A stretch of 64,000 nucleotides of DNA, from NCBI GenBank assembly GCA_964019335.1, contig OZ025718.1:428323-492322 (forward strand), in the 5' to 3' direction. A program made the translations under genes and the position numbers. This document shows, piece after piece, positions 25,601 through 64,000 of the stretch. Source of the stretch: Diplonema japonicum (Eukaryota; Protista; Euglenozoa: Diplonemea). Numbering within the stretch: position 1 is the stretch's first letter; each line of letters begins with the position of its first letter. Under the pieces are notes generated by a model. The model was not told the DNA's origin, made no database searches, and worked only from the letters and a program-made list of their open reading frames with translations.

Positions 25601-28346
25601 ATGTAGGGACACTTGTTGGTTCCAACGTAACTGGAGGTTGAGTTGGAGGTGCCAGCGTGGGTGGGCTTAGAGTATCAGGTGCAAACGTGGCAGGATGGTC
25701 TGTCGGTGGGGCCGGTGTCGGCTGCGACGTCACAGGAATTGTCGGTGTGGGTGTCATAAAGAAAGGTGTCAGAGTAGGTGCAAGGGTCGGTGCGAACGTT
25801 GCGTTATCGAAAGACACAGGCATTGGTGTTGTCGCGGCAACAGCTGCAAGAATGGAGCTTCTAGAAGGGGAACACTGCTGAAAGGCATAATCCATAGACT
25901 CACATGTTTGACTCCCCAGCGTTGCAGCTGTTGACGCGATGGAGTATTTCTCGCTGAGCGTGAACCCCACTTGACTGGATACGTTAAGCTGAGCTGACGA
26001 GACCATCATAATGACAGCAATAAGCACTTTGAAGTGCAGCTGGTACTCCAGCTTAGGGCCGGATATGAGCAACAGGCCTACAAGAACGCAGCATTGGAGG
26101 ACCTGAAAGACCTGTATCCACAGCATGACCCCGTAGGTGTTCGAGAATCTGTCCTTGCCCGTCTGGTCGAACTTGGTGAACATGGCGTCGTACCAAGTGG
26201 AGAAGGCGACAAAACCAATCATCCCTATGATGAGCATGAAGATGCCAAGCAGCACTGCCAAGAACTTCGAGAGAAAGGGGTACATCCGAAGAAGCGATGC
26301 GAGCAAAACCAACGGCTTCATCAGCTTTGCACAATCAACCTTGTCAGGCGGTGCAAAGTCCAACAGAAGCCCCTCGTCACCCAGATTGTTCTCCAAGTCA
26401 CGGTCCATAGAAGCCATATTCTGCTCAGTGTTGCCGCTGTTCTCTGCGGCCATGGCTCCAATCCCAACGGCTGCTAACTTTAACGCTGCGCTTCTGCTAA
26501 GCCATTGTGGCTTTACCTTTTTTTCTATCCTCAAAAGTGCCTTTCCAAGTGCGATGTGAAAGTTCTCGAACAACTGGTGCACATCACCATGGTGCGCGTC
26601 CAACAGCTCGTGCAAATCAGTAGAATGGTCGTTGGCCGTAGAGAGGGACTTGGTTGCCGTCTGTTTGATTGAGACGTTCGAGGCTCCCGGAAAGAGCTGG
26701 TGGAAAATCGCGTTCTGTGAATTGACAAGGTCCTCCATGACACTGCCTGTCGTATGCGGGGTTTCTTGGAGTGTCTCTGCAGAGACAACCGGCACAAACA
26801 CAATGTCGGAAATGGTACTTGGCAGTGAATGGTGCACAGTGGCAATAACTACATCCAACGTGGGCACCTTCACCCGATGCACATGCTCAATATAACTATC
26901 GAGGTCCAAGTCGATGCTTACTTCCCGTACGTTCTCAAGGCTGTAACTAGCTAGGAAAGAGTTGAGGGGCCCTTCGATCTGGCTAACGATGTCCCGCAAG
27001 GCTGTCGGGACGTTCGTGGCCGCAGAGGTGTCGATGGTCAAGTCACCCAACATGTGTTTCACGCTTTGGATAAGATGGTTTTGCATCGAGCTGTCAAAGG
27101 TCAGCTCATAGATCTTGAGTCCTGCCTTGTCGGCAATGTTCCTAGCGATGAGAGGGACAATATCGTTGATGGAGCGCAGCTGCAGCTGAATGATGTCATT
27201 AGCCAGTGCGTCCTCGAGCTTCAGATGCTTCTTCATAAATGTGCCCGCCAACCTTTTTGTGGCGTCACAGATGCATTTCACCTTCAAGGAAACCTTTACA
27301 TCTGCGAAGTCGATGTTGTTGATGGGTGCCGTGTCTTCCTCAGGTGGCGCTATTGCATGTTCCTTGATTTTTGTTATCACTGCGGGCACCGTCTCCACAT
27401 GCGCATTCTCCAAGCAACCCATGACGTCTGCGCTGTACTGCCTGATGTGCGTCACAGCTGCGGGAGATGCCACGTCCAGCGCCTTCGCACCGTTCACAAT
27501 GGTGCAGACAATGTCCATGTCTATGTAGCCCAATTTTTTCTGCAGCTTGGCGTGCACTGAACTGATGAAGCTTGTAGCAAAGCAATTGACCTCCTCGAGC
27601 TGTGCTTCGTACAGCCTGCTGATCGTCGTCAGCAGCATGTCTTTGTACTCTTCAGGAAGATCCGAGTCCTCCAGCTGATGGAGCTGCGGCAGTATTGTCT
27701 GCATGCTGAGCTCGTCTTGCGATGCATCTTTGCACCCGCAGACATACTCTTTCACGATTGAGTTCATCTTATCATTCATGTCCAGCATGGAGGGCACGCC
27801 GGGGGGCTCGTAGGCGTCAAAAGGCTTGTTGAGCTTCATGTTCGGGGGTGGGTGGAAGCCAAGCCATAAGAGAAAGACAAGGTGGAGGAAGATGGATGAA
27901 GGCACCAACGACAGCAAGATCTCGATGTTGGAGATGATGCTCATCTGGTTGAGGCATTGCAGCTTGTAGTGCATGTTGTTGAGGGTGGGCAACATGAATG
28001 CGAGCTGGAACACAGTAAGAGTGACGGATAGGAACACGTGGATAATATGCGTGCTCCACATCTTGAAAGGGCGTACCCCAGTGGCGAACAGCTTTCCCGC
28101 CACAAACACGTTGAACAGGACGAAGTACCAATGCAGCAGGTTCATCGAGACAAACAGGTCTTTAGCCTCACCGCATGCCACACCTACCCATTTGAACCAG
28201 AAGATGCCCCAGAACACGACAGCCGCAACAGACACAATGGTGTTAAGCCCCTGCACTATGATAAAGCCTGTAAAAAAAGATTTCCGAATAGCGGCATCTC
28301 GCTTTTCTTTTTGGTCCATAAGAACCCTCCTGTGGTGCATGAACAA
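22689..28346 (-). CDS. Large multipass membrane protein with a ~700-aa Pro/Thr mucin-like repeat region; true start uncertain
   Basis: 1885-aa ORF with hydrophobic helix clusters at the N-terminus, centre and C-terminus, and PPTPA/TPAPD repeats. Confidence 0.8.
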   Translation of the reverse strand: MFMHHRRVLMDQKEKRDAAIRKSFFTGFIIVQGLNTIVSVAAVVFWGIFWFKWVGVACGEAKDLFVSMNLLHWYFVLFNVFVAGKLFATGVRPFKMWSTHIIHVFLSVTLTVFQLAFMLPTLNNMHYKLQCLNQMSIISNIEILLSLVPSSIFLHLVFLLWLGFHPPPNMKLNKPFDAYEPPGVPSMLDMNDKMNSIVKEYVCGCKDASQDELSMQTILPQLHQLEDSDLPEEYKDMLLTTISRLYEAQLEEVNCFATSFISSVHAKLQKKLGYIDMDIVCTIVNGAKALDVASPAAVTHIRQYSADVMGCLENAHVETVPAVITKIKEHAIAPPEEDTAPINNIDFADVKVSLKVKCICDATKRLAGTFMKKHLKLEDALANDIIQLQLRSINDIVPLIARNIADKAGLKIYELTFDSSMQNHLIQSVKHMLGDLTIDTSAATNVPTALRDIVSQIEGPLNSFLASYSLENVREVSIDLDLDSYIEHVHRVKVPTLDVVIATVHHSLPSTISDIVFVPVVSAETLQETPHTTGSVMEDLVNSQNAIFHQLFPGASNVSIKQTATKSLSTANDHSTDLHELLDAHHGDVHQLFENFHIALGKALLRIEKKVKPQWLSRSAALKLAAVGIGAMAAENSGNTEQNMASMDRDLENNLGDEGLLLDFAPPDKVDCAKLMKPLVLLASLLRMYPFLSKFLAVLLGIFMLIIGMIGFVAFSTWYDAMFTKFDQTGKDRFSNTYGVMLWIQVFQVLQCCVLVGLLLISGPKLEYQLHFKVLIAVIMMVSSAQLNVSSQVGFTLSEKYSIASTAATLGSQTCESMDYAFQQCSPSRSSILAAVAATTPMPVSFDNATFAPTLAPTLTPFFMTPTPTIPVTSQPTPAPPTDHPATFAPDTLSPPTLAPPTQPPVTLEPTSVPTSFPSTSAPDTPAPPTAVPTASPPTPAPATNAPPTPAPPTAAPPTPFPPTPSPPTQAPATNPPLTAVPTSAPPTISPPTPVPPTLSPPTPSPPTPAPLTQAPPTQAPPTLAPSTAAPPSPAPPTQAPPTSIPLTPAPNTAAPTASPPTTPPTDAPPTDAPPTPAPSTQSPPTPFPPTPSPPTLAPPTPAPPTLAPPTPAPPTPSPPTSAPPTPAPPTPAPPTPAPPTPAPPTPAPPTLAPPTPAPPTPAPPTLAPPTPAPPTPAPPTPAPPTPAPPTPAPPTPAPPTPAPPTLAPPTPVPPTIAPSTLTPPSPPLTNAPPTNAPPTVTPTNAPPTATPTNAPPTNAPPTATPTSSPLTPIPETPAPATSEPDAPEDAPIDLDTPSPDTSEPDTPVPQTPAPDTAAPAPIPDTLAPSTLVPNTPVTPAPDTPAPVTPPVTPAPDTLAPVTPPVTPAPDTLAPGTPPVTPAPDTPAPVTPAPNTLAPNTPAPDTPAPDTLVPGTTPVPTTPAPDTSPPTPAPGPDTSAPTSAPDTLAPNTAPPDTTPPATKAPDTPAPAMTPTLPPDTSAPDTSAPVTPTPTAEPTQGPDTLAPLTQSPPTSAPLTSVPATHGPTIAPTPAPPTEAPPTQEPTLNPGSPQALEAVLEAVQAAVAVVAGEDTAAFPKEITPEELADASATVQTAGAASAVSLGANVVLGALVSGIAKLGSKKKGGDRQRSSANGRGGGADNANHEYQEHGAGVTEELEKEQEEEEEEDEEEKLDEDEADANYFSRRSRLYILSCSFAIILVSLLSLGFYSAYWNEYEPYRMDVDKLLPNACSSHDEFLAISGMSWVYLLAPLVFGSVFAVCSLFDILNRMCMLGCALGALLQPFILLQQNLGSRIFEEANADELCVPGITCDKERLKQIGHALHSLGIVLSILDLAIVLFIVVTIGLHNKRGYDTRQQQLQRNKEEIAAQQQLQPPPVEPRSVW
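23700..25800 (-). repeat. Coding tandem repeats (15-nt PPTPA/PPTLA and TPAPD units)
   Basis: Visible GGTGGTGCGGGTGTT-type periodicity on the + strand, with repeated pentapeptides in the translation. Confidence 0.9.
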
Positions 28347-47057: not shown

Positions 47058-47103
47058 TTTAACCTATGTATTCAAACCTCTTACCCCTTACTTGGTTTTT
47101 TTT
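47058..47103 (+). repeat. 45/46-bp direct repeat, left copy
   Basis: TTTAACCTATGTATTCAAACCTCTTACCCCTTACTTGGTTTTTTTT; second copy at 53633-53677 with 1 substitution and 1 indel. Confidence 0.85.
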
Positions 47104-47122
47104 AAAAAAATACGGGTCTGAG

Positions 47123-47244
47123 CAGTGTTGGTCAGTCCCGTCCCGTCCCCTAAAACGGAATACGGGCCTGGACGGGACTCACGGGACTCCACGGGACGGG
47201 ACTCGACGGGACTCACGGGACTCACGGGACTCTCCCCAACACTG
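47123..47244. mobile_element. Small MITE-like element with CAGTGTTG...CAACACTG termini
   Basis: 8-bp terminal inverted repeats and internal GTCCC/GGGAC sub-terminal repeats; no 8-bp TSD seen. Confidence 0.5.
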
Positions 47245-47762
47245 TCATTATTTTTGATAGTTTTGCAACTTTTTTTTTTTTTTTTTTTTTTTTTTCTCTT
47301 TGGAAAAAAAAAAATGGGGAAAAAAAAAAGAGAAAAAAATCCTTGATTTTCTTTTTGACATACATGATGTGTTTACCTTTTTTTTTTTTCCTTCTTTTTT
47401 TCTTGTCTTCTCACATTTTATCGCACACCTAAGCCAAGCTGTTGTTTCTACTTTCCGCATCAAATGTTGTATTTGGATGTAATAGAAAAGGGGGGAAATA
47501 ATAAATAATATGTACAAGAGGAGGGTATGTTTATACAACCTGTGTAAACAGATCGGTTCCTTGCTTTCAGCACCATGCCCCTAATGTGCAATGTACAGCT
47601 CAACCCCTGCATTGCACTGCCTGTTTGTTGCACATATTTTCATGTTATCCCCCCCCCACCTGAAAATAATAGAAAGGAGATAAATATATGAGTTAAAGGA
47701 GGCTGGTGTTGGCAGCACCCTGCACAAGAACTGTCTACTTGATTACAGGGGGTGCACCACAG

Positions 47763-48059
47763 CCGAGTTGTAGCTTCTTCTGCGTTCCGCGTCGTTTCCT
47801 TAATCACCACGGCCAGGATGTAGCTTCTTCTGCATTCCACATCATGCCCTTAATCACTGCAGCCAGGTTGTAACTTCTTGCATTCCATGTCATTTCCTTA
47901 ACCACCATGGCCAGGTTGTAGCTTCTTCTGTGTTCTGCATTGTGTCCTTAATCACCGTGGCCGAGTTGTAGCTTTTTGTGTTCCGTGTCATTTCCTTAAT
48001 CACGATGGCCGGACGGCCGGGTTGTAGCTTCTTCTGCGTTCTGTGTTGTGTCCTTAATG
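47763..48059 (+). repeat. ~47-bp degenerate tandem repeat, ~6 units
   Basis: Unit approximately GTTGTAGCTTCTTCTGCATTCCGTGTCGTGTCCTTAATCACCACGGCCAG; related units occur in both orientations through 49.3-51.5 kb. Confidence 0.8.
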
Positions 48060-48143
48060 TGTGTGGTGTTCAGCTCAACCCCAGCCAGGGCGCCCCAGGT
48101 AACTAAGATTCTGTGCTTGTGTGGTTTGCTCAGTGATGACAGA

Positions 48144-48225
48144 TGAGGAGGTCAACAGTGAACAACACATCTGATGTTTTTCTTATATTTTCATGTTATC
48201 CCCACCACCTGAAAAAGAAGATAAA

Positions 48226-48270
<45 letters not shown>

Positions 48271-48466
48271 TATATTGTGCACCAAGAGGTGCATTGTGAC
48301 ACCTGCTTTTCCCTGTGCAACATAGTGGTACATGTTATAAAACACGTGCTGTGTTGTGCACCCTGTGTTGCATACATCATGTGTGTCGAAAATTTGCGAT
48401 GTTGGGGTGGTTTGTGGGCCAGACCCCTCAGACCACCAGTCTGGCCAGCACTGCCCATCCCTTTTT

Positions 48467-48497
<31 letters not shown>

Positions 48498-49124
48498 GCT
48501 TTGTACTTTTCTTGCAAAGGCCTCTTTTTAATATTTTTTTCAAAGCAGGTCTCCAAACCCCCTGACATTTTTTTTAATTTTTTTTTTTTTTTTTTTTTTT
48601 TTAAATAGTCACAACAAGGTAGTATGAGCCTTGCCTCACATCCCACCCAAACCTAGGACCTCTTTTTTTGAACCTTTGAAACCAAAAGTGCCAGAAAAAT
48701 GCAAGCCCCAGCCTAAATTTGGGCCTTTGTGACACAAAAAACACAAAGAAATTTTTTGGTCCCAAGAGTCCCCTGAGTCCCCTCCAGACCCCTGAGTCCC
48801 ATGAGTCCCTCCAGTCCCCTGAGTCCCCTGAGCAGTGATGGGTGAATCCTAATTAGGACTAGACCGGACTGGACCAGACCAGACCGGATCTGGCGTGAAT
48901 TTCGACCCAATTATGCCAGACTGACCAGACTGACCAGACTGGACCGGACTGGACCAGACTGGACTGGACTGAACCAGACCGTACAAGATACAACACCACA
49001 ACACCACATCCCCCCTTTTTTTTGCTGCAGAGTTCAAACATATAAACAGATGTCTACAAGAAAAGATGTTACACAGGTACTGAGAGACGACGACAACAAC
49101 AAAAACAATGAGAAACGAAGAAGG

Positions 49125-49156
<32 letters not shown>

Positions 49157-51671
49157 CTTCTTTTTCAGGTGGTGGGGATAACATGAAAATATAAGAAAAA
49201 CATCAGATGTGTTGTTTGCTGTTGACCTCCTCATTGGTCATCACCAAGCAAACCACACGAGTGCAGAATCTTGGTTACCCAGGGCGCCCCAGCTAGGGTT
49301 GAGCTGAACCCCACACACATTAAGGACACAACACGGAGCACAGAAGAAGCTACAACTCGGCTGCAGTGATTAAGGACACGATGCAGAATGCAGAAGAAGC
49401 TACAACCCGGCTGCAGTGCACCCCCTGTAATCAAGTAGACAGTTCTTGTGCAGGGCACTGCCAACACCAGCCTCCTTTAACTCTTGTATATTATTCCAAA
49501 GGTGGTGGGGATAGCATGAAAAAACATCAGATGTGTTGTTCACTGTTGACCTCCTCATCGGTCATCACCAGTAGCTCCTGAGTGGAAGAACATAATGCAG
49601 ATGCTCAGGGTGACAAACAGGCAGCAAACTACACCACACACATTAAAGACATGACACAGAATGCAGAAGAAGCTACAATTCAGTTGCAGTGCACCCCTGT
49701 AATCAAGCAGACAGTTCTTGTGCAGGGCACCACCAACACCAGCCTCTTTTAACTCATATATGTATCATTCAGGTGGTGGGGATAACATGGAAATATAAGA
49801 AGTACATCAGATGTGTTGTTTGCTGTTGACCTCCATGTTGGTCATCACCAGTAGCGCCCAAGTGGAGAACATAATGCAGATGCTCAGGGTGATGAATTGG
49901 CAGCAAACTGCATGAGCACAGAATCTTGGTTACCCCGGTTGCTACAGCTGGGGTTAAGCTGCACACATTAAGAACACAACACAGAACACAGAAGAAGCTA
50001 CAACTCAGCTGCAGTGCCCCCCTGTATCAAGTTAACAGTTCTTGTGCAGGCACTGCCAACACAACAAACAGGCATTTCCTCCATCCACTTGGCCAGTCAT
50101 CACCTGTAGCACCCTGAGTGGAAGAACAAATTGCAGATGCTCAGGGTGAGTAAACTACTTAGGGCACCAGCTGGGGTTGAGCTACACACCACATGCATTA
50201 AGGACACAACATGGAATGCAGAAGCAGCCAAGGTGCACCTGTCACTGGTCTCCTTTACCTCTTTCATGTTATTTGGTGGTGGGGATCACAGAAATATAAG
50301 AAGTACATCAGATGTGTTGTTTGCTGTTGACCTCCATGTTGGTCATCACCGGTTGTGCCTGAGTGGAGGAACGTATTGCAGATGCTCAGGGTGATGAACT
50401 GGCAGCAAACTACACAGGCCCAGAATCTTAGTTACCAGGGCCATGGCTGGTGTTGAGCTGCACACTGCACACATTAAGGACATGACACGGAATATTGTGC
50501 TGTCAGTGTTGTGGTGATATAGTCACCACTTTCAACCTTGATGATGCAAAGAGGAAAAAAAAAGGGGGGGGGGGGAAAACTAGTTTGACACTCCATTTGT
50601 TTGTGTGCATGAGCAGAATTTTACCTAATAAAATAGCTCATTACGCTGCCATCAACTAGTTTTAGTCTCGACAATAATATTGTTAAAACAAAAAAAAAAG
50701 TAAGGAATTCCCTGTTCCACCAAGTTCTGGTTCTGCCATTCTGCCAAGTTCCGACTTTCAGTTTGGTGGAAGGGAATGGAACGACCCAATCCTGCACAAG
50801 TAGAATCTTGGTTACCCAGGATGCCCCGGCTGGGGTTGAGCTGAACACCACACACATTAAGGACACAACACGGAACACAGAAGAAGCTACAACTCGGCTG
50901 TGGTGTACCCCCTGTAATCAAGTAGTCTTGTGCAGGTCCTTTAACTCATATATCTCTCACCACGGCCGGGTTGTAGCTTCTTCTGTGTTTCGCATCGATC
51001 ACCACAGCCGGGTTGTATTACATCCAAATACAACATTTCCAGACATTTGTACATACCTGCAGCTGCAGTGCACCGGAGTAGATAGGTGCAAATGGCTTGA
51101 TGGAGCTGTGCATGTCTGTGGTATGAAGAAGAAGAATGACACCACAACCGAGTTGTAGCTTCTTCTGCATTCTGTGTCATGTCTTTAATGTGTGTGGTGT
51201 AGTTTGCTGCCTGTTTGTCACCCTGAGCATCTGCATTATGTTCTTCCACTCGGGAGCTACTGGTGATGACTGATGAGGAGGTCAACAGTGAACAACACAT
51301 CTGATGTTTTTTCATGCTATCCCCACCACCTTTGGAATAATATACAAGAGTTAAAGGAGGCTGGTGTTGGCAGTGCCCTGCACAAGAACTGTCTACTTGA
51401 TTACAGGGGGTGCACCACGGCCAGGTTGTAGCTTCTTCTGCATTCTGCATTGTGTCCTTAATCACTGTGGCTGAGTTGTAGCTTCTTCTGTGCTCTGTGT
51501 TGTGTCCTTAATGTGTGCAGGGTTCAGCTCAACCCTAGCCAGGGTGCCCTGGGTAACCAAGATTCTGCACTCGTGTAGTTTGCTTGGTGATGACCAATGA
51601 GGAGGTCAACAGCAAACAACACATCTGATGTTTTTCTTATATTTTCATGTTATCCCCACCACAAAAAGAAG

Positions 51672-51702
<31 letters not shown>

Positions 51703-52436
51703 ACCAACTTGGTTGAGGGTTTTATACCTAAGGTACTGAGGAGGGTGAACAAGGGGCCAAAGGCCACACCACAGCAGAAAGGTTCGATCAAGAGATAGAT
51801 TGAGACTCTTCAGGCGTCCTGCCACATACCAAAGGTACCCTTAAATGTCTCTGTTCTTTTTTTTTTTTTTTTTTTTCTTCATTTCTCATTGTTTTTGTTG
51901 TTGTTGTCATCTCTCAGTACCTGTGTAACATCTTTTCTTGTAGACATCTGTTTATATGTTTGAACTCTGCAGCAAAAAAAAGGGGGGATGTGGTGTTGTG
52001 GTTGTATCTTGTCTGGTCTGGTTCAGTCCAGTCCAGTCTGGTCCGGTCTGGTCTGGTCAGTCTGGTCAGTCTGGTCAGTCTGGCATAATTGGGTCGAAAT
52101 TCACACCGGATCTGGTCCGGTCTGGTCCAGTCTGGTCTAGTCCTAATTAGGATTCACCCATCACTGCAAGGGACTCAGGGGACTCTTGGGACCAAAAAAT
52201 TTCATTGTGTTTTTTGTGTCACAAAGGCCCAAATTTAGGCTGGGGCTTGCTTTTTTTGGTACTTTTGGTTTCAAAAGTTCAAAAAAAGAGGTCCTAGGTT
52301 TGGGTGGGATGTGAGGCAAGGCTCATACTACCTTGTTGTGACTATGTAAAAAAAAAAATTAAAAAAAATGTCAGGGGGTTTGGAGACCTGCTTTGAAAAA
52401 AATATTAAAAAGAGGCCTTTGCAAGAAAAGTACAAT

Positions 52437-52474
<38 letters not shown>

Positions 52475-52794
52475 AAAAGGGATGGGTAGTGTTGGCCAGA
52501 CTGGGGTCTGAGGGGTCTGGCCCACAAACCACCCCAACACTGCAAATTTTCGACCACACCATGTGGTGTGTTGTGACATATTTTACACCACATTTCACAT
52601 ACCTGATGTTCCACATGATGTATGCAACACAGGGTGCACAACATGGCATGTGTTTTATAACATGTACCACTATGCTGCACAGGGAAAAGCAGGTGTCACA
52701 ATGTGCACCTCCTGGTGCACAATATACAAAAAAAAAAAAAACTTTTATCATATAAGAAAAACATCAGATGTGTTGTTCACTGTTGACCTCCTCA
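48144..52794. repeat. Long inverted repeat: arms ~48144-49686 and ~51145-52794, ~1.45-kb spacer
   Basis: Colinear reverse-complement matches, e.g. GGTGAATCCTAATTAGGACTAGACC (48841) vs GGTCTAGTCCTAATTAGGATTCACC (52134), and near-identical translated junk ORFs on opposite strands. Confidence 0.9.
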
Positions 52795-52845
52795 ATGAAA
52801 TTTTCAGGGGTCTGGAGGGGACTCAGGGGACTGGAGGGACTCAAG

Positions 52846-53215
52846 CAGTGTTGTTATGGGAAAAAACCCGGGGGTGGGGGGGCAAAAAAAATTTTTTTTT
52901 CTAGGGACCCTCACACATTTAGCACCCTCAAAACAGACTTTTTGGAAATTTTTGGCCAAAAAAAATTTTTTTTTTTCCCAGGGGACCCTAAACTTGGGGT
53001 CACTTTGGCTATTTTTGACCCCAAAATTTTTTTTTGGGAAAAAGCCAGAAATCATGAAATTTATATTAAAAACACCTTATAAACCCATTTCTGCAATCCA
53101 AAAAGTTCAGAAAGGTGTTTAGGTGGAATACACATCTCTAAACTATATCCTGAAGTAAAAAGTAAGTAAAAATCCGAAAATCTCAGGGGGGTAACTCATC
53201 CTCATGACAACACTG
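52846..53215. mobile_element. MITE-like element with 15-bp imperfect TIRs (CAGTGTTGTTATGGG / CTCATGACAACACTG)
   Basis: hAT-like CAGTG termini with 2 mismatches in 15 bp; no TSD seen. Confidence 0.5.
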
Positions 53216-53632
53216 GGAGGGCAAAAAATAATTTTTTTTTTGAACACCCAATTTTGTCCCAAAAATGGAATTCTGAACAGCCAATGGAAAGTTTTGACCC
53301 CACTTGGACTGAAAATTTTTCTTCAAAAATCACTTTAGGGTCTAAATGGCCACCTGAAAATCACAAAATCAAGCTTCATTTTAGAATGGTATTTTGGAAT
53401 TTTGGCCTAATTTTGGGTGATGATAAGCAAAATTCACTTTTCAGGAAACACACATTTTCACACATTTGAATTTATTCTTTAGTTTTTTTCTGAACCTATT
53501 TAATTTTTAAACCTAATAAAGAAAGAGTAAATCCTCCTATTCAAAACTTTTTAGTCCCAGTGTTGCCAAAATGGGTTGAAAATTAAAGTACCCAGCTGTG
53601 GTTACTTAATCAAAAAAGAATTTAATAGCCCA

Positions 53633-53677
53633 TTTAACCTATGTATTCAAACCTTTTACCCTTACTTGGTTTTTTTT
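53633..53677 (+). repeat. 45/46-bp direct repeat, right copy
   Basis: Matches 47058-47103. Confidence 0.85.
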
Positions 53678-53777: not shown

Positions 53778-54254
53778 CAAACCCACAAACCCGCACGAGA
53801 AATAAAGCAATCACTTGGTTTTTTAGAATTGTGGGTGTGCGTGTCTGTGTGTGTGTCTGTGCTGGTGCCTGTATGGGTCTGTGTGCTTGCATTTATCTGC
53901 GTGGTGTGTCTGTGCGCGTGCGTGGTCTGTGTGTGTGTCTGTGTGCAAACCCGCAAACCCGCACGAGAAATAAAGCGATCACTTGGTTTTTTAGAATTGT
54001 GGGTGTGCGTGTCTGTGTGTGTGTCTGTGCGTGTATGGGTCTGTGTGCTTGCATTTATCTGCGTGGTGTGTCTGCGTGTGCGTGGTCTGTGTGTGTGTCT
54101 GTGTGCGTGCGTGTGTTTGCGTCTGTGCCTGTGTGCGTGCATGTGTCTGTGCTTGCACGTGTCTGTGTTGTGTGTGTACTCGTGTCTGTGCGGGTACGGG
54201 TGTGTCTGTGTGCGTGCATGCGTCTGTGTTGTGCATGTGTGTCTGGCAGTCTGT
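53778..54254 (+). repeat. Tandem ~167-bp GT-rich units, each headed by GCAAACCC(G/A)CAAACCCGCACGAG
   Basis: Unit starts at ~53778 and ~53945 are near-identical and begin with remnants of the CCCGCAAA satellite. Confidence 0.8.
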
Positions 54255-57200
54255 AGAGAGGAACACGAGGGGACCTGATCAAAGTGAAGGCGTGGGTGAG
54301 GGATGGAAGGAAGGTCACCCTCGACGTCTACGAGGGGAGGGGGCCCTGCGAGAAGGAGACGAGGCGCACTGTCCAGGACCATCTGCGGAAGATGGGTGTT
54401 GCCAAGGCGAGGGAGGGGGCGAGGGAGGCTGCCAGACAGGAGAAGAAAAGGCACCGTCGTGCGAGGAAAGAAGGGAGGAGGAGGGCCCGCAGAGAGGAAC
54501 ACGAGGCCGCCCTGGAACAGAAGCCAGATGACCCTGCAATGGGGCTGAAGCGGACCGAGGTGGGAACGCCTGGAGCCCAACCCCTGGCACCCAGAATCCC
54601 GGCACCTGGGGCTGCAACCGGCACAAGGAGGCACCGCAGACGGACGGGACACAGCAAGGAAGGGGTGAGATGGGAGCACCTGGGGGCGTGGGCCTGGGTC
54701 GCCCTGTTCTCCCTCTTGCTGATCCCAGGGGTGAGGCAGGTGCTGGGGGCGGGCATCGGGATGGCCCCCTCCTTCCTGCATGCGGCAGTGTTGTGGAAGA
54801 GGCCGGGGAGCGACAGGAGGACCACCCGCAGGTCAAGGGTACAGGTGGGGCCCCGAGGGGATGAATGGTCCGCTGGGGAGCTCGCTTGGCTAGCGGTAGG
54901 GGGCACTCTGGTGGGAAGCACTTCAGTTTGGATAGGGGGGCTGATGTCGCTCTGGGCCATGGTGGAAGTGATGGTGGGGAAAGCTGGTGCTGGCCCGACC
55001 CAGAGATTCGGACCGGTAAAGCTGAAGAAGACAAGACGCGGATCGAGAGGTCACTACCGGCCGGTGTACTTGGGCCCGCCTAGAAGCTCAAGACGCAGAA
55101 AAAAGAAGGAGGACGCCAAGCAAGCGGCGAAGGAACGAGCTGAGACGGAGGATAAGCTCTTTCAGGCCGAACACCTGGACCCCTTTGCGGACTTGACGCT
55201 GGCAGGGGACGCGTTGCAAGGAGGTGGTGACCCTCCCCCCATGGATTTGGATGATGAGCACATGGAGGCGCAGAAGGAGGGGGAAAAAGAAGGATCAGAC
55301 AAACATCAATGCCGGATGGAAGACTGCTCTTTCCGCACCAGTGTGGCAAGCTGTCTAGTTAAACACCTCAATGCGGTCCACCATCATTTTGTGAAACAAG
55401 AGCAGGCGAGGAGCATGAAGGTGAACCTCTGTGGAACGTGTGCTGCGGCGTGCTCGTCGAACCAGACGCACTGTGCACTACACAGGCAGCGGATCTGTGG
55501 AACCCCGACAAACAACCCAGGGCCGGCAAGTCAGTGGACGAGATCATGAAGAGCTTCAAGCTGACGAGGAGATCGACGGAGAAGGACGGGAACTGCATGT
55601 TCCACGCCCTGGCCGGTTCGCTCGGGGAAGCCTACGGCGACCACACCCACATCAGGAGCGAGGTTGTAGAATGGATGAAACACCGGGAGGAGCACTATGC
55701 CCCGTTTTGCAGTGAGGGTTGGGACCGGTACTTGGAAGGGATGGGCACAGCAGCGACGTGGGGAGACCACTTGTGCCTGGCAGCCGCAGCACAAGCGTTT
55801 GGCCGCACGATACTCGTGGTTGCTGGGGGGAACAACCCAGTCCTGATGATAGGGGAGTACAACTCCGACCACGAGAAGGTGGTGGTGCTGGCGTACAACG
55901 GCAACCACTACGAGTATGCAGTCGGAGAGGAGGAGTCGATGATGATGCTCCTTGATGAGTCCCAATCGGTAGCTCTACAAAAGGCAGGTAAGCAACCCTC
56001 CGAGGCCCCGGGTGAGGACATCGGGGAGTGGGACATAATAGACCGTGCGATCCCTGGATACGGGAAGGCAGGGGTGTTGGACCAGATGGGGGCAAGGAAC
56101 CAGCAATTCCTGTACTGTCCGGTGGCGAACTGCGCTAGGTCGAAGTGCAAAAGCACGACCCCGTTCAACTCGACAAGGGTATGGAAGTGTCACCTGGATG
56201 GGCACCTGGAGAGTGATGAGATCCCGGAGAGCGTTCTGAGGAGACTGGACCTCGAGAGGTGCCTGGTGTGCAGGGGCTGTGTGTGGAAGGGTCAGGGGTG
56301 CCACGACGAGTGCAAAAAGGCGGTGCGAAGGGAAGGGGAATACACGACCCCCCCGCCGGCCCCGACGAGGACCGAGTTACCCAGCCTGGAAACCATAGCC
56401 GCCATGAACGTCACGACCATGGGGTCGATCCCGACGAGCCTTCAAAGACTGTGGGGCTTACCCTTAAGCACACTCTGGGCCGAGCGGTGAAGGACAACAC
56501 AGAGGAGGCTTGGCTGCTGGTGGCGATGCTCCCCAAAGCCTGCCTGTGGAAGAAGAGGGGAGGGAAGAAGCGGGACAAGGAGACGGAGCTGAGTGTCCAG
56601 GCCAGATTGGAGGAGTGGGAGAAGGGAAATTACATGGCCCTCTGGAATAAGCTGGAATCAGGTGAGAAGGGGGAACCTAAGAACGACGAGGTCTCTAAGG
56701 TCGCCAGGGCCACGGAACTGTGCAGCAAAGGGAGGTTCTCGGCAGGAAACGCGGCGCTTGTAGCCCAGGGGCTGGCGGAAGACAATGAGGATTGCTGGAG
56801 AGCGCTGCAGAGCAAACATCCAGAGCCACTACACCCCCAATGGGACAACCCGGCGAAGACGAAGGAAGCGGTAGAAGTCTTGCCAGAAGAAGTGCTGGAC
56901 GCAATCAGGGACTTCCCGAGGGGGACTGCTGCGGGACCGACTGGTCTGAGAGCCCAGCACATCAAGGACGCGGTGGACGGAGCTTTTGAGTCTCAAGGCT
57001 GTTTGATGTCGGTGACGAGGGCAGTCAACGCATTAGCTAGAGGCACGGCCCCTAGGGAGGTGGCTCCGCTGATGGCAGGGGCGAACCTTGTGGCCCTCAA
57101 GAAGAACGACAGGGACGTGCGGCCCATAGCCGTTGGGGATGTGCTGCGTCGGCTGGTGGGGAAATCCCTTGTGAAGAAGATCGCTCCGGAAGTGGCCTCT

Positions 57201-60200
57201 TCGTACCTGAAGAAAGGCGGCCAGGTGGGGGTATCGGTCCCTGCTGGAATGGAGGCGGCTATACACACCATCAGGCAGTATGTGGACAGGGAACGGGGCA
57301 ACAAGCAGGAAAACAAGGTGATCCTCAAGATCGACTCCGCCAACGCCTTCAACAGTGTTTGTCGGAGGCAGCTGTGCTCACAGGCCTATGAGCAAGCGTC
57401 GGGGCTGTATGCGTGGGCCGATTGGTGCTACAGGGTGCCCTCCCAATTATACTACAACGGAAAGGTGATTAAGTCCCAGGAAGGGGTGCAACAGGGGGAC
57501 CCGATGGGACCGCTGCTGTTCTCTCTGGCCATCCAACCCCTGGTGAACAAGATAAGTGAAGACTGCAACCTGGACATCCTCCAGTTCTACCTGGACGATG
57601 GCGTCCTTGTGGGGAATGTGGATGAAGTGAGAAAGGCGTACAACATCTTGTGTGAGCTGAGCGGAATGATAGGGCTGAAAGTGAAACCCCAGAAGTGCGA
57701 GCTCATATGGGTTAGTGGCGACCTCCCCCAGACAGTGGAGGACACAGGCTTCGATGGCCTGACAGAAGAGAATTTCCACAAAGAGAGGAACTTCATGCTC
57801 CTGGGGGCGCCGATAGGATCGCCGGAGTACACGCAAGCCTTTCTGAACAAACGCTTGGACGCGCTGGAAGAGAACTTCGACATGCTGACCAAGGTGGGGA
57901 GGCAGACAGGGTACACACTTCTCCGGTATTGCAGCTCATACAGCAAACTGGTGTTTTACATGAGAGTGGTCCCAGACTCGCATGTGGGAGGGGTCATGCA
58001 CAGGTTCGACGAGATGGTGCGGAAGACGATGTCGAAGGTGTGCGGCATGCAGTTCGAGAACGGGTCGAAAGAATGGCAGCAGGCGAAACTGTCCGTAAAA
58101 GTCGGTGGGCTTGGGATGAGGAGCTGCCAGGAGCACCTGCGCGCGGCCAACATGGCTTCGAGGGCGTCGACGATGAAGCTGTGCAAGGAGCTGGATCCCA
58201 AATACGAACATGGGCTGGAAGGGGGTGTATGGGGGAGCTGGCTCGAGTGGTTCAACAGGACGAAGGGCGGCATGCAGATTACACCCGACATGGTGGCCAA
58301 GGCCCCCCACATCTGCAGCCAGAGGTGGCTCTCTAGGGTGCTTGATGAGAAGGCGCTGGAGGACCTCTTGGCGAAAGCAGATGCACGCTCGAGAGCGAGG
58401 TTGATGTCGGAGTCAATGCACTATGCGGGGGCGTGGTTGACGGCGACGCCTGACTTCTACAACCAGCTGTCGGACAACGAGTTTGGGGCTCTGATCAAGT
58501 GGTGGTTGGGGGCTCCGGTCTACAAGCAGGGTGAGAGCTGCCACGACCCGAGGTGCAAGACTGAGGGGATGGACGTATGGGGTGACCATGCCCAGGGATG
58601 CGGCAACGCCAGGATTGCGAGGCACGACCGGGTGAAGGAGACCATCCACAGACACTGTCAGTGGGCCGGGGTGAGCGCAACGATGGAGAAGACGGGGCTG
58701 ATCCCGGGGTCGTCCCAGCGCCCGGCGGACGTGTTCTTCCCAGGTGGGGTGGGGGGTTCCCGCCCAATGGCTATGGACGTGGTCATCGTGCACCCGAGGA
58801 ACGAGTCTTGTGTCAACCAGGCGGCGAAGACTGCGGGGTACGCAGCGGCGAAGGCGGAACACTACAAGCGCCAGAAGTATGAGGCGGAGCTCGCCAAGAC
58901 ACGCGTGGCCTTTGTACCTTTCGCGATGGAGACCTTTGGGGGGTTCGGGGAGGCAGCAGTCTACCTCACGAAGAAACTGTCCAGGAGCATAGCTGCGCGG
59001 GCTCACGGGGACAGAGTCTCGATACACAGGCGTGTGGTCCAAGAGGTGCCAACGGCCATGATGAGATCGATAGCAGGGGCGCTGTTAGTCAAAGGGCCTG
59101 TACAGTTGGATCCAGGGCCCCCGGTACCGGACGGCGAAGAGGAAAAAAAGGACAACGAGGAAGCGAACAACGAACCCAACACTGAATCCAACACTGACCT
59201 CACAGAGGACTCCTTCGGCAATGAAAAAACCACCGAAGCTGAGGAGTCGTCCGAGAGGGAAGTGAAGGGACAGGGGGGCGGACCCCCAATCACGGTGGCC
59301 CACCAGCTGGATGCCCTTCTGGAGCAGACGAAGAAGGACCTGGACGCCCGAATGCAGCAGCAGCGAAAGGCGGAACCGGTGGAGGGTGGAACACAAGGGA
59401 AAGCGGGAGCAGGACTCGAAGCAGCCTCGCCGGGAGGAGAAGACACGGAGATGGCCGGAACAGGATCCAGCGAGAGGGCTGGGCAGGGAGGGGAGCTTGA
59501 CCCGAAGGCCCAGGAAGATGGGAAGAGACAAGGGGCGACTGACGCTGCGGTGAACCAGACCTTGGACCAGTGTCCTAAGGGGGATACGGAGGCCCAGAGG
59601 GACTCGAACAAGGGGGACCAGAGTGCGACAACTGCTACGAGGAAGATGACCGTGAGCGAATTCTGTAGGGAACAAGCTGCGAAGAGACAGGGCGGTGGGA
59701 GGACTCTGAAGCCGCAGGCGGATGACGCCCCCGAAGGGACCAAAGAGGGCGGGAACGCACCGAGCGGAGGCAGCCAGTCGGGGCCTGACACACCTAGGGG
59801 TGGGATCCAGACGCCGGAGGGAGATCAGCTGATGGGAGTCGGGGCACCGGAAAGGGAACAGCAGGTGGAAGTAGGGGGAGACTTCGTTCAGCTTGACCCG
59901 ATTGATGTGGTGATGGGCATCCCAATTCCGAGAGCGATGGTGCCACTGAGGGCGAGGCCGGGGGACCGACTGCTCAAGTTCATCATCCAGTTCGAGGGCC
60001 GGGTGGAGATCATCCTTGAAGAAGGAACGGACCCTGGAAGGGAGAGGACTGAGGAGATGCTTCTTGCGAAGGCCGAGTCGCTGGGTGTTCCACTGGAGGT
60101 GGCTATGGCTGGCCAGATTGGTATCGCTGGACTTGGATACATGATGGTAAAGCAGTACTTCGCAAGCTTGGAAGGTGGGTCGGACGGAGAGCGCCGCAGC

Positions 60201-61879
60201 CGCATTGTGGGTTGTGAGGTGCAGAAGTCGGAAACATACCGCGAGTTCGAGTTCCCGAGGACGGTCCAGGATTTCCAGATCACGTACGCGTGTGGGTGTT
60301 CGGCGGTGCAACCTGTTCGTTTCAAGGGTGGCGTGCTCAAGGGGACTCTGGAAACGGCATGGAGGGTGGTCAAGTTGCAGACCCGGGGGTGCAGACACCA
60401 CCCGACACCGGGGAAGGAAGGGGTAGTGGGCATTGCGGCGGGAGCCGGCGCTACCAAGGTGACACTACGTGAGTTCTTGGAGAGGTGCGACGCAAGGATA
60501 AGGGCCCCAGTGGGAAAGGTCAAGGACCTGATCAAAGTGAAGGCGTGGGTGAGGGATGGAAGGAAGGTCACCCTCGACGTCTACGAGGGGAGGGGGCCCT
60601 GCGAGAAGGAGACGAGGCGCACTGTCCAGGACCATCTGCGGAAGATGGGTGTTGAAGAGGTCGACCTGCAGTCAGCGGTGGTGACGGTCCCGGGGTTGTT
60701 CGAGGACGTCTCCTTTGAGAGGTACCTTGGGCTGTTGGCCCGGAAGAAGGAGGAAGACAGGGAGAGGCGGCCTGAGGTGGTTGCCACGGACCTCCCCACC
60801 CTGGAAGAGCTGAAGTGGAGCAAGAAGGACAAGAAGCGGGCCCGGGCCCGATCGGCCAGTCGTGGTCGAAGCCAACATATGCAGGGGTGAGCTCAAGGGG
60901 ATGACCGGGCCCCAGTTCAAGTTCTTGGCGGAGCACAGGTTGATGGAAGAGCTGGGGAGCGACGACCTGGTGCGGGACACGGTCAAGGTGCGCAACAAGG
61001 AGAACTGGGCCCCGGTGAACAGTGCGGTGGCTTGGCTGCAGCTCGAGTCGGGGAGGGCACGGGTGGGGCCCATACCCCACAAGAAGAGGTCCAAAGGCTC
61101 GCTGGCCAGATAGGCCAGCGGGGGTGTGGGGGGCTGTTCTCCCCCCCCCCGCCATAGGAAGATGTGAAACTTTTTTTTTTTTTTTTCTGAGAAAAAAAAA
61201 AGGGAAAAATAAAAGAATAGGAACAGGTGCTACAACGGCCAGGCTAGATAGAACCACTTAGATTTTTTTTTTTTTTCCTTTTTTTTTTTTTTTCTTTTTG
61301 TTTTTCCTTTTTTTTTTTTTTTTTTTTTATTTTTCTGTTTTTCTTTTTCTTTTTCTTTTTGAAGTGGAACCATCTCGGTCGACGTTTTTTTTTTTTTTTT
61401 CTTTTTTCTTTTGTGGTGATGTGTTTTTCCTGTTTTTGATTTTCTTCTTCCCCCGCTCTATGCTTTTTCGCATGGACATTGGTCACTCTGCCCCTTTCCC
61501 CTTTTTTGATTCTCCCTCTTTCCCCCTCCTAAATTTTACCCCCTGCCCCACTCATTCCTCCCTAGTATGTTTTTGAATTTGCCTCTTCTTCTTTTAAGCC
61601 TTTTTTGAGATTTTTATTTTTGAATTTTTATCATTTGGAGTTGCTTCTTCTTCTTCCCCTCTCCCTCCCATAAAGAAAAAGAGAAACCCATGCCTTCCTC
61701 CCAGGTTGGAACTTGATTGTCTGTTTTGGAATATTTTTATTTTCTCTTAAGATTTATCGTGCCTTGTGTGTCTTTTGAAGAAAAAAAAAAAAAAAAAAAA
61801 CATTCTCAAGTCCCCCTTTTTATTTATTTTCTCAAGTCCCCCTTTTTATTTATTTTCTCAAGTCCCCCTTTTTAAAAAA

Positions 61880-61913
<34 letters not shown>
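54255..61913 (+). mobile_element. RLE-type non-LTR retrotransposon (CRE/SLACS-like), probably 5'-truncated, ending in poly(A)
   Basis: RT motifs (RPIAVG, KIDSANAFN, GVQQGDPMGP, YLDD, GGLG), CCHC knuckle (CHDPRC...DHAQGC), RHD, RPAD..D and K..KY RLE motifs; T-rich 3' UTR; A33 tail at 61881-61913 abutting (CCCGCAAA)4. Confidence 0.92.
54402..61113 (+). CDS. Retrotransposon polyprotein split by apparent frameshifts (~55505, ~56460, ~60850): hydrophobic N-terminus, C2H2 Zn finger, OTU protease, C2H2 finger, RT, RLE, C-terminal extension
   Basis: Track ORFs 54284-55549, 55438-56490, 56259-60890 and 60862-61113 overlap in successive frames. OTU: DGNC (Cys codon 55594), WG and NHYE (His codon 55906). 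YLDD at 57588. Confidence 0.8.
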
Positions 61914-61915
<2 letters not shown>

Positions 61916-61947
61916 CGCAAACCCGCAAACCCGCAAACCCGCAAACC
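61914..61947 (+). repeat. (CCCGCAAA)4 satellite spacer between two elements
   Basis: Directly visible after the poly(A). Confidence 0.95.
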
Positions 61948-61982
61948 AACGATTCTAAAGCTACAGTTTCTGTACTTTATTG
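61944..61982 (+). other. Spliced-leader (mini-exon) sequence, 39 nt, retroposed copy
   Basis: AACCAACGATTCTAAAGCTACAGTTTCTGTACTTTATTG: 39 nt, ends in the euglenozoan CAGTTTCTGTACTTTATTG core and starts with the diplonemid-type AACCAACGAT. Confidence 0.9.
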
Positions 61983-62126
61983 TGGTCGTTCGTGTTCTGC
62001 TGGTGCCTGCCGCCTCTGCCTGGGTTTGCAGAGACCGCGGTTTTGGCGAACCTTGTGGCCCTCAAGAAGAACGACAGGGACGTGCGGCCCATAGCCGTTG
62101 GGGATGTGCTGCGTCGGCTGGTGGGG

Positions 62127-62161
62127 AACGATTCTAAAGCTACAGTTTCTGTACTTTATTG
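62127..62161 (+). other. Second spliced-leader copy, nt 5-39 only
   Basis: AACGATTCTAAAGCTACAGTTTCTGTACTTTATTG followed by the same 5' UTR as copy 1. Confidence 0.9.
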
Positions 62162-62333
62162 GTCGTTCGTGTTCTGCTGGTGCCTGCCGCCTCTGCCTGG
62201 GTTTGCTGCTGCGTCCGTCGTCCGTCGTCGCCGTCGTCCGGGGGGGTTGTTTTGCCTGTCGGCCTGCCCGCCGCTTACCGAAAGGATCCCCTCCCCCAAC
62301 ACACACTTTAAAAAAAAATAAAAAAAATAAAAA

Positions 62334-64000
62334 ATGGATCCAAGACGGAATGCAAGAGGAGGTGACCGCGCAAACCGCAGGGAGAAGGAACCCCGACAGG
62401 CCGCCAGGCTGCACACGACGCCAGGGCCGACCCAACCAGACTATCTGGTTGGGCAGTATGAATCCCCACCCCCACCCCCTAGATCCCCCCACCCCCCTTT
62501 AGAAAAAAAAAATAAAATAAAAAAATCACTAGCAGAGACCGCGGTTTTGACCGCCGCTGCTACAGCCACGGCCGCCCCAGCCGCCCTGAACGCCGCAGCC
62601 GACCCTGCCGCCCTGATCGCCGCAACTGAGACCGCCGCAGCCGCCCCTGCCGCAGCCACGACCGCCGCGACCACGACCCCTGCAGCCGACCCTGCTATTG
62701 TTGAAGAGGGAAGAAAAGAGGGAGAAAAAAAGGGGTGGGTACTGGTGTATGGTGAACACCCTCCCGGGTTGAGGACGGGCCCGGCCCCTGCCTTCCCGAA
62801 AGCCCTGCTTTCAGGAAAGTGGGAGGCCCTGTCTGGGAACTCAGGGAGGGAGACCCTCCAATACGGGTACCGGTGGGAGGGGACGAACGCCAAGGTGCGC
62901 CCCACCACGGGGATCCCAGGGGGGGCGGAGGGGTGGGTGAGGGAGGTGGCCGCCGCCGCAGGGCTCGAGGTGGTCCCCAACCAGGTACTTGTCAACAAGT
63001 ACAAGTCTGGTTGTGGGATTGCCGCCCACAAGGACGACGCGAGGCTGGGACCGATTGTCCTAGTCCTCTCGTACGGAGCCGAGACCACAATGGTCATGAG
63101 GAGGGGGGACAGGGTGGCGAAATACCTGGTGCCCCCCTTCTCATGGGCATTGTTGGAAGGTGGAGCGAGACACCAGTGGACGCACCACATCCCGTCCGGG
63201 ATGTCCACTGGTGTCAGGGTGTCGATCACCCTGCGTGCGGTAGGCCCCAAGCTCACCCGCACACCCCAGGAAGACCCATCCCCTGGGTTAACAGACGAAC
63301 CCCCTTTTTTAGATCCCCTTTTTTGTGGGCAAGGGGGGGTGGCACTCCCAAGAGAGGATAGTGCCCCACCCGCCCCCCTTTTTTTTTTAGAACCCTCTTC
63401 GGAGGAAAACAGACCCTCTTCGGAGGAAAATAGAGAGAAAGGGGAAGAGGTGGCACTCCCGAGAGAGGGTGGTGCTCCTCCCCCCCATTTGTCCCCCCCT
63501 TTTTCATTTTTAGAGCCCTCTCCAGAGGAACCCTCCACGGAGGTAAAAAACAGACCCTCTTCGGAGGAAAACAGAGAGAGAGGGGAAGAGGTGGCACTCC
63601 CGAGAGAGGGTAGTGTTCCTCCCCCCCATTCGTCCCCCCCTTTTTCTTTTATAGAGCCCTCTCCAGAGGGACCCTCCACGGAGGTGAAAAACAGACCCTC
63701 TTCGGAGGAAAAAAAGGCAGAGGGAGAGACAGCACGCCCGAGAGAAGGTAGTGCCCCTCCCTCTCTGCCCCCCATTTTTTCTGGACCCTCTACGGAGGTG
63801 TACACCCTGGTCCCCAAGGGCCGGGGGCTTCCGCAAACCCGCAAACCCGCAAACCCGCAAACCCGCAAACCCGCAAACCCGCAAACCCGCAAACCCGCAA
63901 ACCCGCAAACCCGCAAACCCGCAAACCCGCAAACCCGCAAACCCGCAAACCCGCAAACCCGCAAACCCGCAAACCCGCAAACCCGCAAACCCGCAAACCC
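62334..64000 (+). CDS. AlkB-family 2OG-Fe(II) dioxygenase domain protein; no stop codon, runs into the satellite at 63831
   Basis: Manual translation from ATG 62334: MDPRRNARGG...RETLQYGY...PNQVLVNKYKSGCGIAAHKDDARLGPIVLVLSYG...ARHQWTHHIP...RVSITLR. All AlkB motifs are present: NxY 62994-63002, HxD 63027-63035, distal H 63183, RxSxTxR 63216-63236. Confidence 0.88.
   Translation, partial: MDPRRNARGGDRANRREKEPRQAARLHTTPGPTQPDYLVGQYESPPPPPRSPHPPLEKKNKIKKSLAETAVLTAAATATAAPAALNAAADPAALIAATETAAAAPAAATTAATTTPAADPAIVEEGRKEGEKKGWVLVYGEHPPGLRTGPAPAFPKALLSGKWEALSGNSGRETLQYGYRWEGTNAKVRPTTGIPGGAEGWVREVAAAAGLEVVPNQVLVNKYKSGCGIAAHKDDARLGPIVLVLSYGAETTMVMRRGDRVAKYLVPPFSWALLEGGARHQWTHHIPSGMSTGVRVSITLRAVGPKLTRTPQEDPSPGLTDEPPFLDPLFCGQGGVALPREDSAPPAPLFFLEPSSEENRPSSEENREKGEEVALPREGGAPPPHLSPPFSFLEPSPEEPSTEVKNRPSSEENRERGEEVALPREGSVPPPHSSPPFSFIEPSPEGPSTEVKNRPSSEEKKAEGETARPREGSAPPSLPPIFSGPSTEVYTLVPKGRGLPQTRKPANPQTRKPANPQTRKPANPQTRKPANPQTRKPANPQTRKPANPQTRKPAN
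63339..63800 (+). repeat. 141-bp (47-codon) tandem repeats within the AlkB ORF, ~3.5 degenerate units
   Basis: GTGGCACTCCCGAGAGAGGG recurs at 63450 and 63591; encodes VALPREG...EPSPE..STEVKNRPSSEE. Confidence 0.85.
63831..64000 (+). repeat. Perfect (CCGCAAAC)n array, at least 21 units, open at window end
   Basis: Directly visible; the reverse complement is (TTTGCGGG)n. Confidence 0.97.

Follow-up and report, generated by a model that had tools for sequence, protein, structure and literature searches.

In a 64,000-nucleotide stretch of the genome of Diplonema japonicum (GenBank assembly GCA_964019335.1, contig OZ025718.1, positions 428,323 to 492,322; hereafter the window), two broken copies of one retrotransposon are located, and its coding sequence begins with a dioxygenase domain of the AlkB family. 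The element is a multi-copy, spliced-leader-capped and poly(A)-tailed retrotransposon without long terminal repeats (non-LTR) which is related to SLACS and CRE. We lean towards the reading that a single predicted protein of about 2,758 amino acids (aa) starts with the AlkB domain, which would serve as an iron- and 2-oxoglutarate-dependent demethylase on the RNA or the nascent complementary DNA (cDNA) of the element. The predicted order of the domains is AlkB, 47-aa repeats, zinc fingers, an OTU protease, a reverse transcriptase (RT) and a restriction-like endonuclease. All coordinates are window positions on the plus strand unless stated otherwise.

A predicted single reading frame from AlkB to the endonuclease

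A stop-free frame of 499 codons extends from ATG 62334 to 63830, as stated in an earlier reading made from the letters alone (the sequence-only reading). This ATG is the first one downstream of the leader and is directly preceded by an A-run; the likeness to host genes which was claimed there is loose, as about 3 of the 13 host start codons checked are comparably A-rich. The translation starts with a basic N-terminus and an Ala/Thr-rich linker, and the AlkB domain is followed by a coding tandem repeat of 141 nucleotides (nt; 47 aa) in 2.5 copies (63406 to 63761; repeat analysis), both in agreement with the earlier description. What could not be maintained is the end of the open reading frame (ORF) at 63830. 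No stop codon follows downstream either, and the frame stays open to the window end through a perfect (CCGCAAAC)n array of at least 21 copies (63831 to 64000). This telomere-like array, likely the target repeat, runs off the window, and 358 contigs of the sequencing run X10 extend within it past the end of the compared sequence. A stand-alone gene of 499 aa is not real because 63830 is the point where the repeat array cuts in; the region from 62334 to 63830 is the 5' portion (codons 1 to 499) of a much longer reading frame. The frame had indeed been missed by the ORF track, likely because it enters the stop-free 8-mer array.

The rest of the reading frame is found further upstream in a 5'-truncated copy (54402 to 60890), where it is split into three frames by two one-base gaps. 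The sequence from 54255 to 63860 was compared with the assembled contigs of four sequencing runs (X1, X2, X10 and X14). In two of the four, which belong to different studies, contigs bridge from 63830 over 289 nt to 54402 (1,048 base pairs in X1, 663 in X10). In X2 loose contig ends lie exactly at 63830 and at 54402, and the contigs of X14 do not cover this joint. Since this junction of 63830 with 54402 occurs in contigs of independent runs, the two units of the window are copies of one element, of which one is cut at the 5' side (54402 to 61910) and the other at the 3' side (61944 to 63830). Furthermore, the offset of the joint preserves the frame, as 54402 is codon position 2 just as in the frame entered. 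The one-base gaps near 55492 and 56452 are missing from all four runs and are private to the RT copy of the window.

The chained frame comprises 2,758 codons plus a stop, the whole element would measure about 9,470 nt, and the parts present in the window are stop-free. In the predicted protein, the AlkB domain occupies aa 168–301 and the repeats aa 358–476. They are followed by an OTU cysteine protease domain with Cys and His motifs at aa 991–1096 (55585 to 55902; PF02338, E 5.5e-13, 50 bits), an RT with the motifs QQGDP and YLDD at aa 1496–1699 (57099 to 57710; PF00078, E 1.9e-16) and a CCHC knuckle with a restriction-like endonuclease (RHD...E...RPAD...D) at aa 1976–2055 (58539 to 58778), the motif spacers of which are slightly unlike the consensus in the accessible part of PMC12857005. 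Contig depth, which is not a copy number, is alike for the RT part and the AlkB part (2,004–2,802 versus 2,529 in X2, 6.4–6.7 versus 5.75–9 in X1). It is very likely that both parts form one element with one frame. The bridging contigs and single proteins of Diplonema papillatum (see below) make the retroposed context even stronger than proposed in the sequence-only reading, since the domain lies in the retrotransposon's own coding frame.

The AlkB domain

Within the 499-codon translation, PF13532 (2OG-FeII_Oxy_2, the family of 2-oxoglutarate/Fe(II) dioxygenases) is the sole Pfam family at E ≤ 1. It matches aa 168–301 (62835 to 63236) with an E value of 2.9e-13 and 50.9 bits at a cut-off of 31.2, and a TET/JBP profile gave no match. 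The motifs which had been noticed at about 62790 to 63240 are all in place, namely N221-x-Y223 (62994), H232-x-D234 (63027), H284 (63183) and R295-x-S-x-T-x-R301 (63216); in 100,000 shuffles of the domain this chain was never reproduced. The iron-binding residues H103, D105 and H155 (alignment numbering) are invariant across 104 aligned sequences. A fold predicted from this alignment reached a mean predicted local distance difference test score (pLDDT) of 87.6; with the single sequence the score was 35 and the model of no use. The top Foldseek matches in the PDB are all AlkB homologues (ALKBH6 with E 1.6e-12, NMAD-1, ALKBH3, Ofd2 and ALKBH8), with identities to the solved structures of 14–24 % in the fold alignments; ALKBH5 and AlkB of E. 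coli rank lower. By sequence, the best PDB match is ALKBH8 (E 1.7e-8 with the single sequence, 3.6e-45 with a profile), followed by NMAD-1, which is labelled 'DNA N6-methyl adenine demethylase'. The partner domains of ALKBH8, an RNA recognition motif (RRM) and a methyltransferase, are absent from the window protein according to the Pfam scan. Hence the assignment as AlkB-like rather than JBP/TET-like stands: the domain belongs to the AlkB family, with the AlkB fold and all catalytic motifs. It is likely to be an active enzyme.

A HMMER search with the domain among 1.84 billion representative proteins yielded 1,242 relatives at E ≤ 0.001, 70 of them at 1e-10 and none at E ≤ 1e-30. Most of the best 150 (139) have at most 300 aa, and a single one (P0143) also matches RT. 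Word-index protein searches matched none of 3,572 and none of 438 candidates, and pattern scans of metagenome and viral contigs as well as a tblastn search of phages gave no match to the domain. The ESM Atlas and a viral fold library rank viral AlkB-type proteins first. A viral origin is not claimed because the AlkB tree names no donor.

Counterparts in Diplonema papillatum

The nearest named relatives of both the RT and the AlkB domain are proteins of D. papillatum. Ten of the best 150 AlkB relatives were looked up, and P0134, P0137 and P0143 are from this species. Among nine further cluster members, two contain AlkB, OTU and RT in one predicted protein, P0276 (KAJ9442719.1, 2,635 aa) and P0277 (KAJ9464152.1, 1,964 aa), at positions which match those in the window element, and one more contains AlkB and OTU. 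The OTU scores in P0276 and P0277 (20–21 bits) are below the Pfam cut-off. Identity to the window element is 38 % in the AlkB domain and 40 % in the RT-endonuclease region, and all five catalytic positions are kept. P0276, P0277 and P0143 are 99.9 % identical to each other and located on different contigs. The NCBI names of such proteins are SLACS protein or tRNA methyltransferase; P0134 and P0143 are listed as tRNA carboxymethyluridine methyltransferase. In a quick RT tree (62 rows, without curated CRE references) the window element is sister to two D. papillatum proteins with SLACS names, at a Shimodaira–Hasegawa-like approximate likelihood ratio test (SH-aLRT) value of 93 which is below the support mark of 95.

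AlkB was found in none of 120 other RT relatives (precomputed Pfam and phmmer). An OTU domain was detected in 8 of 22 rescanned long RT relatives at E ≤ 0.05, twice above the cut-off. Another relative (P0033) has a UCH deubiquitinase, and in P0009 and P0017–P0025 the OTU domain is located behind the RT instead of before it, so this RT group seems to have acquired or relocated ubiquitin proteases repeatedly. Within D. papillatum, the AlkB region of the subfamilies P0275, P0134 and P0137 is 99 % identical to that of P0276 and the downstream parts differ, including the OTU region, which suggests module swapping.

Mobility and selection

The AlkB unit exists in many variants. In X4 the 1.9-kb unit is matched by 14,423 variant contigs, of which many are 90–99 % alike, and X10 contains one identical and one diverged type as well as a copy which starts at 63500 behind the 8-mer repeat. 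In X2 the repeat is joined to 61606 and RT pieces are joined to the leader. In X14, which we guess to be RNA, the leader is joined to several different sequences; AlkB contigs of about 95 % identity and related RT contigs are present as well. A comparison of the window with an X14 contig gave 9 silent and 7 replacement changes among the 16 of 20 changes listed (replacement to silent ratio per site, pN/pS, 0.27; p 0.009), and both indels of this contig are in frame.

Proposed function and alternative explanations

According to the preferred reading, the RNA of the element would be trans-spliced and polyadenylated, and its protein would bind this RNA in cis. The endonuclease would then nick a (GCGGGTTT)n tract on its G-rich strand, and (GCGGGTTT)n/(AAACCCGC)n tracts would receive the new copy by target-primed reverse transcription. 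The RT would start to copy at the poly(A) end, often halt early and jump between pieces of element RNA. In the same particle, AlkB would strip base methyl groups which stall the RT or flag the element, either blocks of the 1-methyladenosine/3-methylcytidine type (m1A/m3C) or marks of the N6-methyladenine type in RNA (m6A) or DNA (6mA), and OTU would take off ubiquitin. The window would thus hold two defective products of such a cycle. The removal of RT-blocking or silencing methyl groups is our best guess. More tentatively, AlkB and OTU might represent a long-standing diplonemid eraser cassette fused to an RT, convergent with the replicases of plant RNA viruses, in which AlkB would clean the trans-spliced RNA of the element (possibly including a methylated leader cap) for copying into telomere-type repeats and allow an escape from methyl-based silencing.

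Several observations weigh against this reading. The closest relatives of solved structure (ALKBH8 by sequence; ALKBH6, NMAD-1 and ALKBH3 by fold) do not share one substrate, and ALKBH8, the closest in sequence, is a tRNA-modifying enzyme and not a repair demethylase. At the joint, just 47 of the 289 linking bases are visible, which read by eye contain no in-frame stop. The pN/pS value for X14 rises to 0.42–0.50 (p 0.05–0.10) if the four unlisted changes are all replacements. The diverged X10 copy lacks Arg301 and, among the 23 of 55 differences listed, has 4 silent and 5 replacement changes without a significant bias (p 0.19–0.26). At position 277 the window copy has Gly instead of the Glu found in the main contigs of five runs and in D. 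papillatum. Moreover, the D. papillatum proteins come from automatic gene prediction, and the AlkB quick tree, in which the window groups with this species, has long branches and an SH-aLRT of 90, also below the mark. Finally, none of the 22 rescanned long RT relatives, some of them partial models, contains AlkB; therefore related elements work without the domain.

The best surviving alternative, which we regard as unlikely, accepts the same element and assigns the domain to host targets. As a hydroxylase or demethylase similar to ALKBH8, ALKBH4 or ALKBH6, it might act on tRNA, protein or target-site DNA (6mA) and alter translation or chromatin in the element's favour. This is the main rival since ALKBH8 and then NMAD-1 lead the PDB matches by sequence, with ALKBH6 being the best by fold; in addition, genes for 5-methylcytosine (5mC), base J and RNA interference (RNAi) are reported for D. 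papillatum in the accessible part of PMC10161547. However, the identity of 14–24 % in the fold alignments is too low to transfer a substrate, the RRM and methyltransferase partners of ALKBH8 are lacking, and the fusion to RT would put the domain on the element RNA.

A captured passenger without a present role in retrotransposition is improbable. The loss of Arg301 in one X10 subfamily and the RT relatives without AlkB are in line with such a passenger, but two diplonemid lineages whose domains are 38 % identical have both retained the catalytic residues, and silent changes are in excess in X14. Quite improbable is also a division of the element into two ORFs, ORF1 with AlkB and the repeats and ORF2 with OTU, RT and endonuclease. 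This division would leave the question of the activity as it is. In its favour are the 242 of the 289 linking bases which are unseen, the chance of 1 in 3 for an in-frame offset and the two ORFs formerly described for CRE elements; most of these have a single ORF, however (both according to the accessible part of PMC12278014), both visible ends of the link are in frame and stop-free, and three near-identical D. papillatum models from different contigs are continuous from AlkB into the RT region. It is scarcely credible that the AlkB unit arose as a processed pseudogene from a host ALKBH gene, or as an independent partner element without RT, and came to lie beside the retrotransposon. Judged from the window alone, the unit would suit both origins, as it has a leader and repeat flanks and lacks introns and an RT; but its 3' end runs on into the RT element in independent runs, its closest named relatives are element proteins of D. 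papillatum, and recurring exon-like joints were not seen in the contig comparisons. The pseudogene, which the sequence-only reading had named as an outcome that would refute it, was ruled out on these grounds and for want of a stop or tail of its own, and the RT-less partner or stand-alone ORF was rejected on the contigs joining 63830 to 54402.

Structure of the two copies

Downstream of the reading frame, the upstream copy has a T-rich 3' untranslated region (UTR) of 983 nt (60891 to 61873) and a poly(A) tail (61874 to 61913). It is separated from the AlkB copy by 4.6 units of (AAACCCGC) (61911 to 61947). Both copies carry patchwork 5' ends. In the upstream copy, the addition (54255 to 54401) is composed of 16 nt from 54491–54506 and 131 nt from 60524–60654. 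In the AlkB copy (61944 to 62128) it contains the leader with 47 nt of UTR, 16–18 nt of the AlkB frame (62532–62549) and 84 nt of the RT frame (57080–57163), all exact matches. Both ends consist of exact pieces of element sequence with 1–2 nt in common at most junctions, and they look like products of template jumps by the RT.

The entry 'Euglenozoa 14' of a published leader table is presumably the Diplonema leader. With this entry the 39-nt leader of the element agrees in 37 of 39 bases (PMC3795323, accessible part). In the AlkB copy the euglenozoan spliced leader (62127 to 62161) begins at leader base +5 (to +7), followed by a 5' UTR of 172 nt without ATG and with an A-run at its end (62162 to 62333). 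For a second copy of the leader the start point is ambiguous (+1 to +5), and in X2 joints were found at +2 and +9. As cap methylation in trypanosomes halts RT (PMC6173450, accessible part), a cap effect was considered; the four start points settle nothing on this hypothesis. X10 contains contigs, in the comparison of 61944–62163, with other sequence just before leader base 1 and past a GT after the leader, and these look like the leader RNA gene itself; in the element a GT follows the leader directly as well. An Rfam scan gave no match above the cut-off.

About 600 aa past the endonuclease (59070 to 60890) have no Pfam match and no match among the 120 RT relatives, and P0276 of D. papillatum has an unrelated C-terminal tail of about 470 aa. 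Between AlkB and OTU (about 54677 to 54760) a hydrophobic stretch with a 19-aa mean hydropathy of 1.68 is a possible membrane anchor; in P0276, too, hydrophobic stretches occur at a comparable position.

Flanking regions

Two short AAACCCGC-type tracts (53779 to 53794 and 53947 to 53963) form the left edge of the insertion cluster. From 53796 to 54254 a TG-rich unit without coding capacity is present twice (93 % alike), in both cases behind two AAACCCGC-type units; it may be a second passenger or a subtelomeric unit in the same repeat tract. The 5' ends of both insertions face 46 kb of host genes and the C-rich repeats point away from these genes. This orientation is the reverse of that at a normal chromosome end and would fit an internal tract, a fusion or an assembly join. 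The region from 47058 to 53677, which separates the host gene cluster from the insertions, is AT-rich and CpG-poor (observed/expected 0.28) and contains inverted repeats nested within each other (arms of at most 533 nt, 95 %). It is flanked by a 46-nt direct repeat (47058–47103 and 53633–53677) and is possibly a foldback-type element.

All of the 12 host ORFs scanned are on the minus strand. In one of them (3157 to 4653, minus strand), a single frame encodes both an aspartate/ornithine carbamoyltransferase domain and a PyrI regulatory domain. As fusions of pyrB with pyrI occur in a few bacteria, the ORF is possibly a transferred gene. Another one (22689 to 28340, minus strand; 1,883 aa) is hydrophobic at both ends, with a long core of Pro/Thr/Ala repeats in between; it gave no Pfam match at 1e-4 and is likely a surface protein.

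Comparison with known elements

With SLACS, CRE and CZAR of trypanosomatids, as described in the accessible part of PMC12278014, the window element has in common an RT with restriction-like endonuclease, zinc-finger motifs, internal repeats, poly(A) and likely a single ORF. The broad features of CRE-clade elements with such an endonuclease are present, namely the RT followed by CCHC and endonuclease, poly(A), internal repeats and 5'-truncated copies. The trypanosomatid elements are inserted in the spliced-leader RNA gene, whereas the window element lies in (AAACCCGC)n tracts: behind its poly(A) tail come AAACCCGC repeats and not the remainder of a leader gene. Because the leader RNA gene is not used as a target, the element is filed as SLACS/CRE-related and not as SLACS. 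In addition, it possesses AlkB and OTU, neither of which is mentioned for SLACS, CRE or CZAR in the accessible part of that paper.

The telomere-targeting elements MoTeR1 and FoTeR (PMC12857005, accessible part) belong to the same RT-endonuclease group and likewise have a few C-rich repeat units after the 3' end, here on the sense strand at 61874 to 61947, and many truncated copies. In contrast, their 5' ends face the chromosome end, those in the window face host genes, and no AlkB or OTU is mentioned for them in that part of the source. The 8-mer repeat, a candidate for the telomere repeat, is very abundant in X10; no paper on it was found.

The closest counterparts are the D. papillatum proteins KAJ9442719.1, KAJ9464152.1 and KAJ9446222.1, named SLACS 132 kDa protein or tRNA carboxymethyluridine methyltransferase, which have the same order and spacing of AlkB, OTU, RT and endonuclease at 38–40 % identity and differ in unrelated linkers and the C-terminal tail. 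In the accessible part of the genome paper of this species, SLACS RTs are named and a dozen AlkB-type genes are read as host regulators (PMC10161547).

An AlkB domain borne by a retrotransposon is also known from Gypsy_Pa_2799 of Phalaenopsis, and the AlkB of this orchid element acts in vitro as a demethylase on m6A RNA (PMC9289625, accessible part). That element is, however, a recent LTR element with a separate AlkB ORF close to the ALKBH5-type m6A demethylases of plants, whereas the window element is non-LTR, its AlkB is predicted to be fused to the RT and has no relative at E ≤ 1e-30. In the replicases of Flexiviridae, AlkB is followed by OTU within the polymerase polyprotein as well (PMC544882, accessible part); these are RNA viruses with an RNA-dependent RNA polymerase (RdRp), and the common layout would be a case of convergence. 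The accessible part of a review on giant transposons has no mention of '2OG', 'oxygenase' or 'demethyl' and names OTU for Helentrons only (PMC6431247). A literature search, outside of which lay Repbase, most subscription papers and Additional file 1 of PMC10161547, gave no report of an AlkB domain in the polyprotein of a non-LTR element. AlkB in a retrotransposon (orchid LTR element) and AlkB beside OTU (plant RNA viruses) are thus already known, and what appears to be new is a predicted non-LTR polyprotein which starts with AlkB and includes OTU.

Implications

As a correction of the annotation, some AlkB-type genes of D. papillatum which were counted as host regulators are domains of elements. 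Since pretreatment with AlkB is used to help RTs to read through methylated RNA, a natural fusion of the two enzymes is of practical interest. If the proposed function is true, a non-LTR retrotransposon would supply a nucleic-acid demethylase and a deubiquitinase of its own in cis. This would point to methyl- and ubiquitin-based control of retroelements by their euglenozoan hosts and would allow a direct test of such control in D. papillatum, a model species with near-identical copies.

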